A DNA stretch of 8,466 nucleotides from a virus (Duplodnaviria; Heunggongvirae; Uroviricota; Caudoviricetes). Position numbers and translations under genes: made by a program. Each line of letters starts with the position of its first letter. The stretch's first letter is position 1. Of this stretch, positions 698 through 7,806 are shown in pieces. The stretch lies in IMG/VR virus record IMGVR_UViG_2693429635_000026, one strand, 5' to 3'. A model generated the notes under the pieces. That model was not told where the DNA came from, made no database searches, and saw only the letters and a list, made by a program, of their open reading frames with translations.

Positions 698-1060
698 GGG
701 GCTGATTCTGGATTCGACGGGATTTGCGAAACCCAAGGTGCATGCCGAGGGGCGGTTGGCCTCGTAAAAAGCCGCAAAAAATAGTCGCAAACGACGAAAA
801 CTACGCTTTAGCAGCTTAATAACCTGCTTAGAGCCCTCTCTCCCTAGCCTCCGCTCTTAGGACGGGGATCAAGAGAGGTCAAACCCAAAAGAGATCGCGT
901 GGAAGCCCTGCCTGGGGTTGAAGCGTTAAAACTTAATCAGGCTAGTTTGTTAGTGGCGTGTCCGTCCGCAGCTGGCAAGCGAATGTAAAGACTGACTAAG
1001 CATGTAGTACCGAGGATGTAGGAATTTCGGACGCGGGTTCAACTCCCGCCAGCTCCACCA
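698..1060 (+). ncRNA. ssrA: tmRNA (transfer-messenger RNA, SsrA), full length 363 nt
   Basis: Starts GGGGCTGATTCTGGATTCGACGGG (tRNA-like 5' end). The internal tag frame GCA AAC GAC GAA AAC TAC GCT TTA GCA GCT TAA at 787-819 encodes the degradation tag ANDENYALAA. The 3' end is GGTTCAACTCCCGCCAGCTCCACCA (T-arm, acceptor, CCA) at 1036-1060. Confidence 0.95.
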
Positions 1061-1188
1061 ATCATGATTGGACGGTGTAAGGACAACACCAACAAAAACA
1101 GGAAGTTAGCAGTCTCAGCAGGACACCGACCAGACGGTGAGGAGACAAAAAAGGATACGCAAAGGAGCCGCGGCTCTCAAGTGTGAAA

Positions 1189-1217
1189 GAAGCCCGCAAA
1201 TTGCGGGCTTTTTTATT
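1189..1217 (+). terminator. rho-independent terminator downstream of ssrA
   Basis: GC-rich hairpin AGCCCGC-aaatt-GCGGGCT (1191-1209) followed by a T-run TTTTTTATT. Confidence 0.6.
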
Positions 1218-1269
1218 GATCAGTCAACAATAAACAGTAACCGAATGAGAATTTAATAAGGATATTCAT

Positions 1270-2301
1270 ATGGAAGCTACTGTGGATTCGATTGATTTTC
1301 TGATCCGTAGTGAAGATGATTTTCTAAACTTTCTGGAAGAAATGAAAGCCCGAGAGGGGCTTGATTCTAAAGAGTTTATTTTCCCTAACGTAAAGTTTGC
1401 AGGCTGGCCATCCTTAGACATAAATGTAAAAGGAGAGCGGTATCATTCATCAATTACATCAGCAATGTTGTTTGGTATGTCAATGCTCAACGAGGAGATA
1501 CAGCGGGCGTTTGCAACCATACGATACGGATCGCAGAATCTTCAACGCTTGACTAATGAAGACAAGCAACGACTTGATATAAATTTTAAAATTAGCGAAG
1601 GTTCTAGTGATGCGGAAGGCACCACTGACAAGATCATCAACGCAGTAACTGATTTTTTGCGAGATACTATGTCTGGACTGAACGGCTGGCAGAAAATGCT
1701 TGTTATAATCACAATGGTTGGCGCGGCCAGCACATGTGGTTATCACTACATTTCAGAAAATGCCGTAACAGAAAGACATGCAACTGATCGGCAGGTTGAA
1801 ATTGCAAAAACCACATCCGATGGCATAAACAAAGCCATAGAAGCAACATTAGATTATAAAATCTATGGGAAATCAGCGATTAGCGATAAAGTTACTAGTC
1901 ACGGACAAGCAGGTAAAAGTGCTTTAGTGAAGCAATTAGCTGCTGATCCTACTGTCGAAACCGTGACTTTAGGAAATGAGAAACTAACACGACAAGACCT
2001 AAATACCTACAACAGCCGACAATCTGTAGATAGAGAACGTAAAGAACGAACTGATATATTTTCCATCAAAGGTGTAACCAGAACAGGGCCAACAAATCAG
2101 GATATTAATATTAACGTTGTTAGGGTCTCTAATGACGAATGCTTCACAATCAAAGCTTCAGCTGATGTTATCACCCAAGATGAGTTGACAGCTATTGTTG
2201 ACGCTTTGTCAAACAACTCTCATATTAAAATCAGTTACTTAGAGGTAATTGAAAAGGGTGCTGTTTCTATAGGTCAGTTCAACACTATTGTTTCAGAATA
2301 A
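1270..2301 (+). CDS. hypothetical protein, 343 aa, with a central hydrophobic (putative transmembrane) segment; no recognised domain
   Basis: Long uninterrupted ORF with a Shine-Dalgarno-like AAGGA about 8 nt upstream of the ATG (TAAGGATATTCATATG). AT-rich codon usage consistent along its length. The stretch WQKMLVIITMVGAASTCGYHYI near residues 140-161 is hydrophobic. The antisense ORFs 1480..1746 and 1542..1733 are shadows. Confidence 0.72.
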   Translation: MEATVDSIDFLIRSEDDFLNFLEEMKAREGLDSKEFIFPNVKFAGWPSLDINVKGERYHSSITSAMLFGMSMLNEEIQRAFATIRYGSQNLQRLTNEDKQRLDINFKISEGSSDAEGTTDKIINAVTDFLRDTMSGLNGWQKMLVIITMVGAASTCGYHYISENAVTERHATDRQVEIAKTTSDGINKAIEATLDYKIYGKSAISDKVTSHGQAGKSALVKQLAADPTVETVTLGNEKLTRQDLNTYNSRQSVDRERKERTDIFSIKGVTRTGPTNQDININVVRVSNDECFTIKASADVITQDELTAIVDALSNNSHIKISYLEVIEKGAVSIGQFNTIVSE

Positions 2302-2352
2302 TCACTTAACCCCATTTATGTCGGTTGAGGTTATAAGTCACGGAGACCAGAT

Positions 2353-2697
2353 ATGTCCTTAAAGTATGCACATGAAAAATTTCATACTGCAGTACTTACT
2401 CTTGCGGGCCATGGAAGTATTCAAGAACGCTTGATTAATTCGTATGTTTTTAGCCTTGGGCATCTTAAAACAGCCGATGATATTCCAAATGCCTTACAAA
2501 GCAGGTTCGATGAATTATGTAAGGAACTGACTAAGTTTGATGCCACTGGCGATGAGGGGCGAGTTCAAGCAACAGTATCAAAACTTAACGATTTCGAGAT
2601 CAATAAACTGATCGAAGATATTGTCAGTCTTAACGATGATATTTGCATGAAATTGGCTCTGACGGATGAGACTTACCAAGACATACACCAAAGTTAA
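2353..2697 (+). CDS. hypothetical protein, 114 aa, acidic and probably alpha-helical; likely co-transcribed with the upstream 343-aa ORF
   Basis: ATG at 2353 preceded by GGAGA about 7 nt upstream. Same strand as ORF 1270..2301 with a 51-bp gap, and followed by a hairpin terminator. No recognised motifs. Confidence 0.65.
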   Translation: MSLKYAHEKFHTAVLTLAGHGSIQERLINSYVFSLGHLKTADDIPNALQSRFDELCKELTKFDATGDEGRVQATVSKLNDFEINKLIEDIVSLNDDICMKLALTDETYQDIHQS

Positions 2698-2724
2698 TTG
2701 ATTAAATTCAAAAAGTTAACGTTC

Positions 2725-2750
2725 AACCAGCCAGTTTTTGGCTGGTTTAT
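2725..2750. terminator. putative bidirectional hairpin terminator between convergent genes
   Basis: AACCAGCC-agttttt-GGCTGGTT (8-bp stem, 2725-2747) followed by TTTATTGTC on the plus strand and flanked by an A/T tract on the other side. It lies between the stop of ORF 2353..2697 (+) and the stop of ORF 2782..2994 (-). Confidence 0.45.
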
Positions 2751-2781
2751 TGTCTTATAATATTCTTGCTCGAATGATGCA

Positions 2782-2994
2782 CTATTTATGATGTAATCCG
2801 GACATCAGTTCATGGACAAGATTATCTCTTTCATTGTGTTGCAACCGTAAATGCATAGCAAAAAGGTGAGCACTATCCTCATTCCTCTTCAAGCCATGCT
2901 GTTCAAGATACCCGAAAAAACGGCTTCTCTTATCCGCTATTTCCTGAGTCTGACGTGCAACATTTACCAAATTTTCTAGCGTTTTTCTTGGCAT
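2782..2994 (-). CDS. hypothetical small protein, 70 aa
   Basis: The minus-strand ATG at 2992-2994 is preceded by a strong Shine-Dalgarno AGGAGG (revcomp of CCTCCT at 3002-3007) at good spacing. Basic and His-rich; no family recognised. Confidence 0.5.
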   Translation of the reverse strand: MPRKTLENLVNVARQTQEIADKRSRFFGYLEQHGLKRNEDSAHLFAMHLRLQHNERDNLVHELMSGLHHK

Positions 2995-3192
2995 ACTATT
3001 TCCTCCTGAAATTGTTGTAATTCACTAGGATATTCATTTTAATTTGTATCATTTAGTACCAAAACCGCTATCAATTAACAAAGCCATCGTTGTGGTTTAC
3101 CTTGCAGCCGTTTTTTGTCATTGACTCTATGTGAAAATAATGAATCATCATGAGATTGGCTCACACGTTCTTGAATTCGACGAGCTGTGTCT

Positions 3193-3747
3193 TTATTTAT
3201 CTCCTGCCGGAAACCTCTGATACAAAGTCGATACGCCAACATCATAGATAATCGCAACTTTCTGGCGCGGAACTCCTGATGCAATTAATCGTCCGGCTTG
3301 TGCCCATTGTTCTGGTGTAAGTTTGGGACGACGTCCACCAATTCGTCCCTGTGCGCGAGCAGCTTCCAGTCCAGCTTTTGTTCGTTCAACAATCAGTTCT
3401 CGTTCCATTTCAGCCAGGGCCCCCATCACATGAAAGAAAAAGCGCCCCATTGGGGTACTGGTATCAATTGAATCCGTCAGACTACGAAAGTTGATGCCTC
3501 GTTCGCGCAACTCCTCCACCAGCACGACAAGATGCCGCATACTGCGCCCCAGTCGGTCCAGTTTCCAGACCACCAGCGTATCGCCTGCCGATAATGTCCT
3601 GAGCAGTTTTTTCAGTCCCGGCCTTTCGGACTTTGTACCGCTTATCTTGTCTTCAAAAATCAGCTCGCATCCTGCACAGTTCAGCGCATTACGTTGTAGA
3701 TCTGTGTTCTGGTCATTTGTTGACACACGTACATAGCCAATAAGCAT
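3193..3747 (-). CDS. pin: serine-recombinase DNA invertase, Pin/Gin/Hin/Cin family (184 aa)
   Basis: Translation from the internal Met (MLIGYVRVSTNDQNTDLQRNAL...GDTLVVWKLDRLGRSM...GINFRSLTDSIDTS...MGRFFFHVMGALAEMERELI...) has the resolvase/invertase catalytic N-terminus with the active-site Ser in VRVSTNDQ and a C-terminal HTH-like region. It is close to E. coli Pin as I recall it. I take the start as the ATG at 3745-3747 (SD AGGGAGA upstream) rather than the upstream Met at 3783. A gix/pix-like site lies 55 bp upstream. Confidence 0.93.
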   Translation of the reverse strand: MLIGYVRVSTNDQNTDLQRNALNCAGCELIFEDKISGTKSERPGLKKLLRTLSAGDTLVVWKLDRLGRSMRHLVVLVEELRERGINFRSLTDSIDTSTPMGRFFFHVMGALAEMERELIVERTKAGLEAARAQGRIGGRRPKLTPEQWAQAGRLIASGVPRQKVAIIYDVGVSTLYQRFPAGDK

Positions 3748-3773
3748 GGTAGATCTCCCTGACAAAAGCAGGA

Positions 3774-4268
3774 ATGATGCCATTTGCTCGTTATTTCTGC
3801 ATTTTCATAAACGTTGGTTTGGGAGAAGCGGCAAAACGAAATGTGGGCAACGGGGAAAACCAAATCCCTGATATGTCTTTCTGGACGGTTACTGGTGGCA
3901 ATGGAAATTTTGTGATTCGTCAACCTGACGGGCTAATCATTCAGATGGTTACTGTAAGTATAAGCGGTCCAGTGGCGATGAATGGAATGACTGATAATGC
4001 TTATGCCATTACAGGTTCTAATAAGTCTTATATTGCCACAGCCACATTGCCCTTTGTATTTCCTAATAAGGTGCTGGGCGTTATCCCTCTGGTATCAACA
4101 ACAGCTTATGGTGGTGTATCCAGTAATATTACAGGTTCATACGCGACGGCGGTTTGTTCTTTTGCCGCTGTCAGGGGGAATAATACGATTGTGTTCAAAG
4201 TCGACAAACCACTGAATGCAGCCTTTCCTTCAGATACCAGCGTCTCAGCGTTAATCATTGGACGGTAA
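3774..4268 (+). CDS. silent tail-fibre variable C-terminal cassette (Sv copy) with no constant N-terminal region
   Basis: From about 3816 onward the reading frame is identical to the C-terminal roughly 150 aa of the tail fibre gene at 7063..7806 ([17 protein letters not shown]...SALIIGR). The first roughly 14 codons (MMPFARYFCIFINV) are antisense read-through of the pin leader and are not part of the homologous sequence. Probably not expressed in this orientation. Confidence 0.5.
   Translation: MMPFARYFCIFINVGLGEAAKRNVGNGENQIPDMSFWTVTGGNGNFVIRQPDGLIIQMVTVSISGPVAMNGMTDNAYAITGSNKSYIATATLPFVFPNKVLGVIPLVSTTAYGGVSSNITGSYATAVCSFAAVRGNNTIVFKVDKPLNAAFPSDTSVSALIIGR
3802..3827 (+). other. invertase crossover site A (gix/hix/pix-like 26-bp site, proximal to pin)
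   Basis: TTTTCATAAACG-TT-GGTTTGGGAGAA. The half-sites fit the TTnTCnnAAACC pattern of Hin/Gin-family sites around a central 2-bp crossover. The inner half plus crossover (TTGGTTTGGGAGAA) is identical to sites B and C. Confidence 0.6.
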
Positions 4269-4270
4269 GA

Positions 4271-4714
4271 ATGAACTCAGTATTCTTTTCACCCGCAAGT
4301 AAAAGTTTTTATCTGCAAGAATTGTTTCCAGAATATGAGGATGCGGGAACGCTTCCTGATGATGTTATTGAAATTACCAGAGAAACATATGAGCAATTTC
4401 TTGGGCTGCATCCAGAAGGGAAAGAAATTGGCGCTGACAGTTCAGGACGGCCAATATGGATTAATTCCCCGCCGCCTTCAAAAGAGGATGAGATGCTGGC
4501 GGCTGAAATGAAAAAGATATCTTTGGTTTCAGAAGTCAATACCTACATCAATACCCATCAGTGGCCTGGCAAAGCTGCTATTGGTCGTCTGAAAGGTTAC
4601 GAGCTGGAACAATATAATTTATGGCTGGATTATCTGGACGCACTGGAACTGGTTGATACCTCCAGTGCTCCAGATATTGAATGGCCTACGCCTCCGGTAG
4701 TTCAGGCCAGATGA
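4271..4714 (+). CDS. tail fibre assembly protein (Mu U-like chaperone), copy A
   Basis: 147 aa with the Tfa-type C-terminal motif ...DTSSAPDIEWPTPP. Starts 2 bp after the Sv stop, suggesting translational coupling. Identical to the ORF at 6617..7060 (-). Confidence 0.82.
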   Translation: MNSVFFSPASKSFYLQELFPEYEDAGTLPDDVIEITRETYEQFLGLHPEGKEIGADSSGRPIWINSPPPSKEDEMLAAEMKKISLVSEVNTYINTHQWPGKAAIGRLKGYELEQYNLWLDYLDALELVDTSSAPDIEWPTPPVVQAR

Positions 4715-5291
4715 CATCCGGCGCGGTGCTGGTATCTGTTGCAGTCACCGCGTCAATGTAATCCAGCACAGCGTTAAGCCGGGTTGTTTCTGCCTGCGTC
4801 AGCTTCCGCCCGGCCTGCAATTTCAGCTGAATCAGACTAATGGAAGCCATAGCAGCATCAATCAGTGACTGGCGCCGTACTTCTGCCGCGTCTACTGCGG
4901 CGTTATGCTGTGCCTCAGTATCGGTCACCCATTTCTCACCATCCCATTTATCGTATGACGTTAACGGGGCGATAGTGGTTGTATTTTCAGGGTAATCACC
5001 CGGAACTGTGATTTCTTTTGATTCTCCTGTTTCGGTGCTATAGACGATTTCACCGCGATGGTCTGGCACATATTCCCATGAGTTAAAATCTGCAGAACGG
5101 CAAATTGCATAACCAGCTTTATATGAGCCAGGAGCATCTAAACAGGAACATGCCGGGATACCAACACCCACAGCAAGATATTCAGTTGATGTGGAAATAT
5201 ATTCCCGTGTTTCACCATCATAATTATAAACGGTAATGTCTCCGGCCTTTGTGGCGATGAGTTCATTATTTAATACAGCTTTACTTATCAT
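4686..5291 (-). CDS. tail fibre assembly protein (Mu U'-like chaperone), copy A
   Basis: 201 aa ending ...DTSTAPDVIWPELPEA (Tfa family C-terminal motif). Identical to the ORF at 6040..6645 (+). Its 3' end overlaps the 3' end of 4271..4714 convergently by 29 bp. Confidence 0.82.
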   Translation of the reverse strand: MISKAVLNNELIATKAGDITVYNYDGETREYISTSTEYLAVGVGIPACSCLDAPGSYKAGYAICRSADFNSWEYVPDHRGEIVYSTETGESKEITVPGDYPENTTTIAPLTSYDKWDGEKWVTDTEAQHNAAVDAAEVRRQSLIDAAMASISLIQLKLQAGRKLTQAETTRLNAVLDYIDAVTATDTSTAPDVIWPELPEA

Positions 5292-5570
5292 GCAGCCCTC
5301 ACAATATAATTAAAGGCGATGTTACGGGAGCGGGTTTCAGATGCTGTGCGAACTGAGCGAGATGCGTCGAATGTCCAGTTATAAGCGCCATAACCCTCAA
5401 TAATTTCGGCTTCCTTTAGACCTGTAGATAATACTTGCCCATGTTGACTAAATGGCCCTGAACTAAGTACGTCTCTAAAAAGCTGGGTACGCCCAAAAGA
5501 ACCAACAATATTCTGAATTGCATCATTCTGTGCAGATAATAAGTTACGACCAGAGTCAATCCCGCGCCCA
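5288..5570 (-). pseudogene. 5'-truncated copy of the tail-collar-type variable cassette Sv' (C-terminal roughly 93 codons, no start)
   Basis: Reverse complement of 5761..6043, which is the C-terminal part of ORF 5576..6043 (...ETRSRNIAFNYIVRAA). The duplication breakpoint at 5570/5571 cuts the cassette mid-gene, and there is no in-frame Met in the retained part. Confidence 0.55.
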
Positions 5571-5584
5571 TTGGTTTGGGAGAA
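5559..5584 (+). other. invertase crossover site C (conserved inner half and crossover, degenerate outer half)
   Basis: ATCCCGCGCCCA-TT-GGTTTGGGAGAA. The crossover and inner half are identical to sites A and B, but the outer half is a poor match. Recombination with site B would fuse the constant part of S in frame to Sv'. Confidence 0.55.
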
Positions 5585-6043
5585 GGTTCGGCATTACCCG
5601 TTGGTGTGCCTGTTCCGTGGCCTTCCGCCACTCCGCCAACGGGGTGGCTAAAATGTAACGGAGCAGTATTTTCTTCTGAAAAGTACCCAAATCTGGCAAA
5701 GGCTTACCCAACATTAAAATTACCAGATTTACGCGGTGAATTTATTCGTGGCTGGGATGATGGGCGCGGGATTGACTCTGGTCGTAACTTATTATCTGCA
5801 CAGAATGATGCAATTCAGAATATTGTTGGTTCTTTTGGGCGTACCCAGCTTTTTAGAGACGTACTTAGTTCAGGGCCATTTAGTCAACATGGGCAAGTAT
5901 TATCTACAGGTCTAAAGGAAGCCGAAATTATTGAGGGTTATGGCGCTTATAACTGGACATTCGACGCATCTCGCTCAGTTCGCACAGCATCTGAAACCCG
6001 CTCCCGTAACATCGCCTTTAATTATATTGTGAGGGCTGCATGA
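5576..6043 (+). CDS. alternative tail-fibre variable C-terminal cassette Sv' (phage tail-collar-like receptor-binding domain), currently unfused
   Basis: The translation carries motifs I recall from tail-fibre C-termini of the tail-collar type (ALPVGVPVPWPSATPPTGWLKCNGAVFSSEKYPNLA...LPDLRGEFIRGWDDGRGIDSGR...ETRSRNIAFNYIVRAA). The ORF-track start is a TTG lying inside site C, so the real product would be made only as a fusion after inversion. Its stop overlaps the downstream tfa start (ATGA). Confidence 0.75.
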   Translation: MGEGSALPVGVPVPWPSATPPTGWLKCNGAVFSSEKYPNLAKAYPTLKLPDLRGEFIRGWDDGRGIDSGRNLLSAQNDAIQNIVGSFGRTQLFRDVLSSGPFSQHGQVLSTGLKEAEIIEGYGAYNWTFDASRSVRTASETRSRNIAFNYIVRAA

Positions 6044-6645
6044 TAAGTAAAGCTGTATTAAATAATGAACTCATCGCCACAAAGGCCGGAGACATTACCG
6101 TTTATAATTATGATGGTGAAACACGGGAATATATTTCCACATCAACTGAATATCTTGCTGTGGGTGTTGGTATCCCGGCATGTTCCTGTTTAGATGCTCC
6201 TGGCTCATATAAAGCTGGTTATGCAATTTGCCGTTCTGCAGATTTTAACTCATGGGAATATGTGCCAGACCATCGCGGTGAAATCGTCTATAGCACCGAA
6301 ACAGGAGAATCAAAAGAAATCACAGTTCCGGGTGATTACCCTGAAAATACAACCACTATCGCCCCGTTAACGTCATACGATAAATGGGATGGTGAGAAAT
6401 GGGTGACCGATACTGAGGCACAGCATAACGCCGCAGTAGACGCGGCAGAAGTACGGCGCCAGTCACTGATTGATGCTGCTATGGCTTCCATTAGTCTGAT
6501 TCAGCTGAAATTGCAGGCCGGGCGGAAGCTGACGCAGGCAGAAACAACCCGGCTTAACGCTGTGCTGGATTACATTGACGCGGTGACTGCAACAGATACC
6601 AGCACCGCGCCGGATGTCATCTGGCCTGAACTACCGGAGGCGTAG
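6040..6645 (+). CDS. tail fibre assembly protein (U'-like), copy B, cognate chaperone of Sv'
   Basis: 201 aa, Tfa C-terminal motif, start overlapping the Sv' stop (ATGA), SD GAGGG upstream. Confidence 0.88.
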   Translation: MISKAVLNNELIATKAGDITVYNYDGETREYISTSTEYLAVGVGIPACSCLDAPGSYKAGYAICRSADFNSWEYVPDHRGEIVYSTETGESKEITVPGDYPENTTTIAPLTSYDKWDGEKWVTDTEAQHNAAVDAAEVRRQSLIDAAMASISLIQLKLQAGRKLTQAETTRLNAVLDYIDAVTATDTSTAPDVIWPELPEA

Positions 6646-7060
6646 GCCATTCAATATCTGGAGCACTGGAGGTATCAACCAGTTCCAGTGCGTCCAGATA
6701 ATCCAGCCATAAATTATATTGTTCCAGCTCGTAACCTTTCAGACGACCAATAGCAGCTTTGCCAGGCCACTGATGGGTATTGATGTAGGTATTGACTTCT
6801 GAAACCAAAGATATCTTTTTCATTTCAGCCGCCAGCATCTCATCCTCTTTTGAAGGCGGCGGGGAATTAATCCATATTGGCCGTCCTGAACTGTCAGCGC
6901 CAATTTCTTTCCCTTCTGGATGCAGCCCAAGAAATTGCTCATATGTTTCTCTGGTAATTTCAATAACATCATCAGGAAGCGTTCCCGCATCCTCATATTC
7001 TGGAAACAATTCTTGCAGATAAAAACTTTTACTTGCGGGTGAAAAGAATACTGAGTTCAT
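6617..7060 (-). CDS. tail fibre assembly protein (U-like), copy B, cognate chaperone of the expressed tail fibre
   Basis: 147 aa. Starts 2 bp after the stop of the tail fibre gene at 7063..7806 on the same strand. Tfa-type C-terminus. Confidence 0.88.
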   Translation of the reverse strand: MNSVFFSPASKSFYLQELFPEYEDAGTLPDDVIEITRETYEQFLGLHPEGKEIGADSSGRPIWINSPPPSKEDEMLAAEMKKISLVSEVNTYINTHQWPGKAAIGRLKGYELEQYNLWLDYLDALELVDTSSAPDIEWPTPPVVQAR

Positions 7061-7062
7061 TC

Positions 7063-7806
7063 TTACCGTCCAATGATTAACGCTGAGACGCTGGTATCTG
7101 AAGGAAAGGCTGCATTCAGTGGTTTGTCGACTTTGAACACAATCGTATTATTCCCCCTGACAGCGGCAAAAGAACAAACCGCCGTCGCGTATGAACCTGT
7201 AATATTACTGGATACACCACCATAAGCTGTTGTTGATACCAGAGGGATAACGCCCAGCACCTTATTAGGAAATACAAAGGGCAATGTGGCTGTGGCAATA
7301 TAAGACTTATTAGAACCTGTAATGGCATAAGCATTATCAGTCATTCCATTCATCGCCACTGGACCGCTTATACTTACAGTAACCATCTGAATGATTAGCC
7401 CGTCAGGTTGACGAATCACAAAATTTCCATTGCCACCAGTAACCGTCCAGAAAGACATATCAGGGATTTGGTTTTCCCCGTTGCCCACATTTCGTTTTGC
7501 CGCTTCTCCCAAACCAAGGTTTTCGAGAGCCGTTTTCACCGTGCCATCAGATTTGATATCGCCAAACGGATTCTTGCGGCTTAACAGCAGCGCACGAAGC
7601 GCGGTAAGCAGCTGGTCATGCCGCCCCTTCTCCAGGCTGGCACCGGATGCCTCCACCACGCTGCAGAGTTCTTCCTGCAACATGTCAAAGTAGTCATCAT
7701 CCAGATCGGTGGCAGGTGTGCCGGTCTGGGGGTTACCACGGGTAAAACCGTTCTTACCCGCGCCGAACTTATCCTTCTGCGCGGTTTTCGTGTCTATACG
7801 ATGCAT
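7063..7806 (-). CDS. phage tail fibre protein S (constant N-terminal part 7518..7806 fused to variable part Sv 7063..7517), 247 aa
   Basis: ATG at 7804-7806 (minus strand) with SD GGAG upstream, immediately after the stop of the upstream tail gene. Crossover site B lies inside the ORF at the ...ENLG|LGEAA... junction, as expected for Mu S, P1 and e14-type invertible tail fibre genes. Confidence 0.88.
7504..7529 (+). other. invertase crossover site B (gix/pix-like, inside the tail fibre gene at the constant/variable boundary)
   Basis: Plus strand TTCTCCCAAACC-AA-GGTTTTCGAGAG. Its reverse complement CTCTCGAAAACC-TT-GGTTTGGGAGAA is inverted relative to sites A and C, with both half-sites fitting the TTnTCnnAAACC pattern. 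Confidence 0.65.

Follow-up and report, generated by a model that had tools for sequence, protein, structure and literature searches.

When a stretch of phage DNA from the IMG/VR collection (record IMGVR_UViG_2693429635_000026, Caudoviricetes; 8,466 nucleotides (nt), the whole of which is hereafter called the window) was first read, the question was raised whether two open reading frames (ORFs) downstream of ssrA, the gene of transfer-messenger RNA (tmRNA), form a functional pair and what their products might do. The preliminary description took them for a two-gene cassette, possibly an anti-phage module. The first of the two, here called A (343 amino acids (aa)), is, as far as sequence comparison can tell, a conserved, selected, single-gene accessory protein of temperate phages with one predicted membrane helix; the second, B (114 aa), is absent beside all but the closest relatives of A. 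From the genomic context we propose, with a probability of about 0.5, that A is an autonomous accessory ("moron") gene of temperate phages, most likely encoding a lysogen-expressed exclusion or defence protein at the envelope.

ORF A: family, genomic slots and predicted architecture

Along its whole length ORF A matches the functionally unannotated phage protein family phrog_6191 (E = 6.8e-38; residues 7-340 on profile positions 5-331 of 338). A word-indexed search returned relatives in 76 clusters at 90% identity, each of them named "hypothetical", and 839 clusters at 50% identity passed E < 1e-3 in an exhaustive profile search (498 passed E < 1e-10), the members being mostly 320-350 aa long. 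The hosts named are Enterobacterales, Shewanella, Oceanimonas, Vreelandella, Pseudoalteromonas and Pseudomonas, and one member comes from a Moraxella phage; the family is widespread across Gammaproteobacteria. Purifying selection on A is evident from a nonsynonymous divergence (dN) of 0.11 from the Cronobacter copy, for which the synonymous divergence (dS) is saturated, and from a dN/dS of 0.07 for the 3' end of A against a diverged copy in locus L013. The preliminary description had recognised no characterised family in either protein, and searches of Pfam, NCBIfam, PADLOC and PDB sequences agree: A, B and a third ORF, C, had zero matches in Pfam and NCBIfam, and two profiles of A gave only weak matches to PDB sequences, all on the transmembrane segment (best E = 0.015). 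Literature searches with the accessions, the PHROG identifier, the phage names PhiR12 and phi458 and the cI-N slot found no characterisation of the A family. The label "T2SS GspM containing protein", which the PhiR12 homologue carries in GenBank, was rejected for want of a supporting Pfam match.

In every context examined A is a lone gene, with neighbours that are unrelated among themselves, and its homologues move among three accessory slots of temperate phages. The commonest slot, where lambda has rexA-rexB, is directly 3' of a cI/S24-type repressor gene of the same orientation and ahead of N. A is found there in phage phi458 (where the next gene is N by Pfam N36), in PhiR12, in two metagenomic lambdoid lineages (L007/8 and L022-24), in Yersinia prophages and in Moraxella phage Mcat17, in which A starts 31 nt after the S24 repressor gene. 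Nineteen of 44 IMG/VR loci have the same arrangement, with the repressor 29-520 nt upstream and N, where seen, 345-1037 nt downstream. The region between cI and N, home of rexAB and bstA, is known as a mosaic hotspot (PMC8585504). The position of A in this slot, on the repressor strand, implies expression in lysogens.

The copy of A in the window is not in the cI-N slot. It occupies the second slot, the end of the prophage adjoining pin or the tail-fibre genes, as does that of strain EC1515. In Mangrovibacter A is followed after 333 nt by pin, and in Citrobacter the order is DinI, A, 130 nt, pin; further examples come from Enterobacter, Xenorhabdus and locus L025, in which A adjoins polysaccharide pyruvyl- and acetyl-transferase genes. 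Nine IMG/VR contigs have A right at the border of the predicted prophage. The third slot is that of Klebsiella homologues, between a tail-chaperone-like gene and the tape-measure gene, where HK97 has the moron gp15. That a repressor-adjacent slot, a pin/attachment end and a tail-gene moron slot swap the same cargo is useful for context-guided defence discovery.

A model of A obtained with AlphaFold2 (AF2) from an alignment of 32 sequences (predicted local distance difference test score (pLDDT) 75.7) shows an alpha/beta N-terminal domain (residues 1-135), a hydrophobic helix (139-152; predicted transmembrane helix about 141-161), a low-confidence linker (156-187) and a helical hairpin (180-224). 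The C-terminal domain (about 256-340) is predicted to form a five-stranded beta-barrel of OB (oligonucleotide/oligosaccharide-binding) topology, in agreement with the definition of the OB fold. Its best structural matches are periplasmic metal- or glycan-binding OB proteins, SilF and AB5-toxin B subunits. When viral models were searched with Foldseek, full-length likeness was found only to uncharacterised phage proteins, a protein of Leptospira phage LE1 and a DUF6575 protein.

In 62 diverse family members the most hydrophobic stretch of 19 residues is always central (62/62; residues 120-146, mean 133), with a mean Kyte-Doolittle value of 1.72 and a value of at least 1.6 in 44 of the 62, and none of them has a second hydrophobic segment of that kind. 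The alignment of the same members leaves no set of invariant polar residues, which argues against A being an enzyme. Since the N-terminal domain is acidic and lacks a signal peptide, it is probably cytoplasmic. The net charge around the helix (about +0.35 before it, -0.43 after it) weakly favours a topology with the N-terminus in and the C-terminus out.

An anti-phage role is proposed because the slots that A occupies hold phage-exclusion and defence genes. We infer that A would be a single-pass inner-membrane protein with a cytoplasmic N-terminal alpha/beta domain of about 135 aa, one transmembrane helix and, after it, about 180 aa comprising the helical hairpin and the OB barrel, which are probably periplasmic. 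In lambdoid phages A would be co-transcribed with the repressor upstream of PL/N, as rexAB is, and so be made in the lysogen; in the e14-like prophages integrated in ssrA it would be the last gene before the attachment site, beside pin and just after an ssrA terminator supplied by the phage. The protein would shield the lysogen from superinfecting phages, and the mechanism that we favour is exclusion at the envelope without catalysis, by which either the entry of DNA or a step of receptor use or translocation would be blocked; that A is a membrane-acting trigger of abortive infection appears less likely. More tentatively, A may found a new and widespread family (hundreds of 50%-identity clusters in Gammaproteobacteria) of single-gene, membrane-spanning phage-exclusion proteins, which would be interchangeable with rexAB and bstA in the repressor slot and with mcrA at e14-type ends, and in which a cytoplasmic alpha/beta domain, linked via one helix to a periplasmic hairpin and OB barrel, senses or blocks incoming phage DNA. 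This extended form is possible, and we hold it with distinctly less than even confidence.

The prophage in ssrA and the layout of the window

The cryptic prophage e14 of E. coli K-12 is homologous to the window from exactly the stop codon of pinE (window position 3191) onwards, with 93.9% nucleotide identity. In e14 the order past pinE is mcrA and then attR. As the homology ends at the pinE stop codon, window positions 1222-3190, with A, B and C, are cargo in the mcrA slot. The features of the window from its start to the invertase gene are as follows.

1-483, opening the window: smpB
698-1060, plus strand: ssrA, encoding tmRNA (ARAGORN; Rfam RF00023, 295.8 bits), whose 3' end is the prophage attachment core
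1061-1221, plus strand: ssrA trailer (160 nt) with an intrinsic terminator at 1190-1215 (by folding), most likely supplied by the prophage
1270-2301, plus strand: ORF A, 343 aa, PHROG 6191 family, predicted single-pass membrane protein
2353-2697, plus strand: ORF B, 114 aa, acidic, all-helical in its model, a lineage-restricted orphan, probably co-transcribed with A
2725-2747, not assigned to a strand: hairpin terminator common to the convergent A-B and pin-C transcription units, parting B from C
2782-2994, minus strand: ORF C, 70 aa, a basic orphan gene downstream of pin, between B and pin
3193-3783, minus strand: pinE-type serine invertase gene (Pfam Resolvase, 1.8e-51, and HTH_7), marking the limit of e14 homology

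Past pin the window continues with an invertible tail-fibre segment and a ymfQ-like baseplate gene.

Most of what the preliminary description had said about this layout stood. A and B are co-directional and each has its own ribosome-binding site (AAGGA 8 nt ahead of the start codon of A, GGAG 7 nt ahead of that of B, both from reading the sequence), and both lie between the tmRNA terminator and the downstream hairpin, as folding of 1190-1215 (-19.3 kcal/mol, z -5.8, followed by a U-run) and of 2725-2747 (z about -5) indicates. The inventory was correct for A and B and had overlooked C on the minus strand. The hairpin had been called a bidirectional terminator: it folds strongly on both strands (-15.2 kcal/mol on the plus strand, -16.2 kcal/mol on the minus strand), but a T-rich tail follows the stem directly on the plus strand only. 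The region is AT-rich, as stated (GC content 0.36-0.44 over 1200-3150 versus 0.52-0.54 in smpB and ssrA). A large, putatively membrane-anchored protein does stand beside a small acidic one, A having one central hydrophobic helix and B an isoelectric point (pI) of 4.9. Folding of the 51-nt spacer between A and B gave no significant structure (z 0.41), which makes co-transcription of the two plausible; here they are probably co-transcribed.

The claim that A and B lie at the attachment end of an ssrA-integrated prophage, next to its invertase, is borne out by the e14 homology up to the pinE stop codon and by strain EC1515 (NZ_CP021844.1). In this strain the pin-C-B-A block terminates an apparently complete prophage of about 36 kb, which contains lysis genes, terminase, an HK97-type head, a Mu-type contractile tail, ymfQ, stf/tfa and pin. 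The integrase gene is at the end opposite to pin-C-B-A and is followed by an AAA-ATPase/RloB pair (L039 11233-13341) and then by a 32-nt copy of the 3' end of ssrA (identical with window 1030-1061). The far-end integrase and the ssrA repeat show that the phage integrated in ssrA, and the trailer and terminator most likely belong to it. The contrary view, that the trailer (1061-1220) is native backbone and the element does not lie in ssrA, was rejected on these grounds and because the trailer moves with A across genera.

Three observations point to a trailer supplied by the phage. ATCC 25922 has an unoccupied site with the order ssrA-trailer-glaH, and the trailer there is only about 90% identical to the one in the window; in E. 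coli, Cronobacter, Mangrovibacter and two IMG/VR contigs A comes after a homologous trailer, the trailer and terminator accompanying A across genera at 77-92% identity (L004-L006, L045, L048, L085); and at some loci further ssrA-specific islands are inserted between ssrA and the trailer-A unit. It seems that these phages integrating in ssrA bring along a substitute terminator for the tmRNA gene, with A being the first gene after this terminator. Strain 602687 has no more than a remnant of the element, about 5.5 kb long and cut by IS3.

Some observations on these loci are recorded in their own right. The window contains a perfect inverted repeat of 1763 nt (3809-5571 and 5760-7522, 100% complementary, arms 188 nt apart) within the pin-invertible tail-fibre region, which doubles one tail-fibre C-terminus and two tail-fibre assembly genes. 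Strain 602687, which is 100% identical to the window wherever the two align, does not have this duplication. Either the inversion-duplication is real, or it is an artefact that arose in assembly because the segment was present in both orientations in the population. In EC1515 an adjacent CP4-57-like island carries an ATP-dependent nuclease and UvrD-helicase pair and a TIR-domain protein, and with the AAA-ATPase and RloB pair the ssrA locus gives the impression of defence-laden elements stacked in tandem. In CP123010.1 (L036 3964-4802) pin adjoins the chromosomal genes epd-pgk-fbaA instead of tail-fibre genes, which suggests a large rearrangement with its breakpoint at the invertase gene or its recombination site. 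In E. coli FDAARGOS_1287 (L001 24709-33204) a second recombinase gene connects the tail-fibre fragments after pin-C-B-A with a P2-like tail module running from sheath to ogr; at the end of this module 31 nt of the ssrA 3' end recur in inverted orientation. It looks as though the invertase had fused two prophages at ssrA.

ORFs B and C, and alternatives to the proposed exclusion role of A

Of the two neighbours, C forms only three protein clusters, yet is indexed in thousands of assemblies, and it is fixed within the pin-C-B-A block in all eight contexts examined. B had zero matches among phage proteins and forms six clusters in 5.8 billion proteins, all at least 84% identical. It is found solely beside copies of A that are at least 94% identical. 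The AF2 model of B is all-helical and of low confidence (pLDDT 52.5), too poor for structure searching; the structure check called for in the preliminary description was informative for A, with its OB barrel and its viral-model matches to uncharacterised proteins only, but not for B. A likeness of C to the small antisense ORF after the Yersinia homologue was considered and rejected, as was a relationship of the small neighbours of A homologues with one another or with B, except for one patch of 11/20 residues. This patch (F..a.L.LAGHG.I..RL.N; pairwise E 0.001) is shared by B residues 10-29 (window 2380-2439) and an unrelated-looking Klebsiella gene for 157 aa (L018 5104-5577, minus strand). 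Each is the gene directly after an A homologue, the Klebsiella one on the opposite strand; the patch is too short for a homology call.

The preliminary description had treated A and B as a two-gene cassette and likened them, by analogy only, to abortive-infection and effector-immunity pairs, and one can imagine an obligate two-component module in which A is a membrane effector or toxin and B a small acidic immunity protein, antitoxin or sensor. The two genes are indeed adjacent and co-directional, separated by 51 nt of unstructured spacer and followed by a single terminator after B, and the same 46 of 5426 complete E. coli genomes hold both. In these genomes, however, all copies are at least 99% identical; they represent one allele, and the co-occurrence is therefore no independent evidence of linkage. 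Locus L013 has a diverged copy of A and B (87% nucleotide identity), with a gene that its MCGRF start marks as SRAP-like in the place of C. The dN/dS of B against this copy is 0.15, and B is thus a real gene under purifying selection that moved together with A at least once. The wider comparison across related genomes, which had been proposed as a check on whether the pair travels as a unit, went against the pair: A moves alone. B is absent beside all A homologues of less than 94% identity, although cross-lineage co-occurrence would be expected of a type II toxin-antitoxin or effector-immunity pair. It is missing even beside homologues that are 80-82% identical and lie in the same prophage type and slot (Cronobacter, Mangrovibacter, L045, L048), and likewise in Citrobacter and in every lambdoid phage examined; neither B nor C stands beside the A homologues of 47-82% identity in this slot, and in Mangrovibacter and Citrobacter A directly abuts pin. 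No homologue of 29% to 82% identity was ever found with B, nor was any other conserved neighbour of A found among the homologue loci. Neither A nor B has a toxin or antitoxin domain or fits a toxin-antitoxin or defence model in Pfam, NCBIfam or PADLOC. We regard such a module as quite improbable. B and C are lineage-specific insertions between A and pin in a near-clonal pin-C-B-A block of E. coli, and A does not depend on B.

The remaining explanations concern A by itself. An envelope protein of lysogenic conversion that has nothing to do with other phages (acting in surface properties, stress tolerance, colonisation or metal handling) would also sit in lysogen-expressed accessory slots; A is a predicted membrane protein whose OB domain is nearest to SilF and AB5 B subunits, and in L025 it stands beside the polysaccharide-modifying transferase genes. 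Such a role is nevertheless unlikely: the documented characterised occupants of the cI-N slot are the exclusion and abortive-infection genes rexAB and bstA, no metal- or sugar-binding residues are conserved in A, and the family occurs in phages of such varied hosts and habitats (marine Shewanella and Pseudoalteromonas, Moraxella, insect-associated Photorhabdus) that a phage-versus-phage role fits better than a host niche. The tight linkage of A to the repressor in many lambdoid phages, and the fact that e14-like phages retain it as their last gene, next to pin and the attachment site, could alternatively mean that A is not cargo and serves the phage's own cycle, be it maintenance or induction of lysogeny, timing of lysis or protection of the prophage's own DNA entry. 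We give this little credence, because only a minority of lambdoid and e14-like phages have A (lambda has rexAB and e14 has mcrA in those positions), because A jumps among three unrelated slots, and because it persists in decayed remnants without replication or regulatory genes, such as that of strain 602687. This short, IS3-cut remnant, the frameshifted copies of A in L012 and L032 and the failure to detect a promoter upstream of A would in turn be expected if A and B were decaying parts of a dead prophage without current function in this strain. Against this very unlikely explanation stand ORFs that are intact and identical in dozens of unrelated strains, purifying selection on both A and B, and the presence of the same block at the end of the apparently complete prophage of EC1515.

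The proposed exclusion or defence role of A has to be held against several findings that do not favour it. In a PADLOC search of the locus, as the preliminary description had advised, not one of the 5027 models in PADLOC-DB v2.0.0, a library of defence proteins that covers systems described up to 2023, was matched at E <= 1 by A, B or C; the 62 family members fitted no family in Pfam or PADLOC either, only scattered single-member matches being obtained (PADLOC E >= 3.8e-4). The accessory slots house non-defence genes, too. The topology rests on a weak charge bias, and no fold could be assigned to the N-terminal domain. Upstream of A a sigma-70-like promoter was looked for and not detected, and 55 nt separate the gene from a strong terminator before it; expression of A in the context of the window is thus uncertain. 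Read-through from the very strongly transcribed ssrA could be a route to it. Finally, A is frameshifted in some copies, in L012 (124-1156) and L032 (5694-6724), which leaves fragments of 112 + 210 aa or 124 + 165 aa. In L012 B is frameshifted as well, at its 5' end; the block is thus occasionally inactivated.

ORF A compared with known exclusion and defence genes

As an exclusion or defence protein, A would enlarge the anti-phage repertoire of prophages by a new, abundant single-gene family and give the classical repressor-adjacent slot a third well-populated occupant besides rexAB and bstA. Should the extended proposal be true, its mechanism and combination of folds have not been described for any defence system. 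Should A not be anti-phage, it is still a conserved, unexplained, lysogen-linked envelope protein. The hypothesis is directly testable, because A is one gene of about 1 kb and the phi458 and PhiR12 series can be cultivated on E. coli K-12 and C.

With RexA/RexB of lambda the A homologues share the position between cI and PL/N on the repressor strand, and both systems have a membrane component. There is no sequence kinship, however: hhalign with the profile of 62 members gave a probability of 0.8% to RexA and of 0.3% to RexB. A is one gene in every lambdoid context whereas RexAB is two, and A has one predicted transmembrane helix with large soluble domains on either side, whereas Rex consists of a polytopic channel-like protein and a soluble sensor.

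BstA of Salmonella phage BTP1 is likewise encoded by a single gene directly 3' of the prophage repressor gene and spread over diverse Gram-negative prophages; it is a single-gene abortive-infection protein that localises to phage DNA replication sites (PMC8585504). In contrast to a protein at replication sites, A is predicted to be anchored in the membrane, and neither A nor the 62 family members match any PADLOC model. The PADLOC library presumably includes a model for BstA.

HK97 gp15, P22 SieA and T4 Imm are prophage-encoded membrane proteins in accessory slots, as A is predicted to be, and the Klebsiella homologues of A occupy the very slot of gp15. gp15 and SieA block DNA entry (PMC11436027). 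With only 62 aa gp15 is far smaller than A with its two folded soluble domains (predicted), and hhalign gave a probability of 0.5% for the two being related. Among the PHROGs phrog_6191 was the sole match of A, and at E <= 1 there was none with an annotation as superinfection exclusion; of the three proteins, gp15 was the one compared directly.

The e14 slot of McrA (pinE-mcrA-attR) is that of A in the window, the prophage type being the same and the cargo lying between pin and the attachment site. McrA differs in being a type IV restriction endonuclease, whereas in Pfam and NCBIfam searches A, B and C bear no sign of a nuclease or any other enzyme. Compared with all these systems A would be a new family within a known kind of system, the accessory and exclusion genes of prophages.

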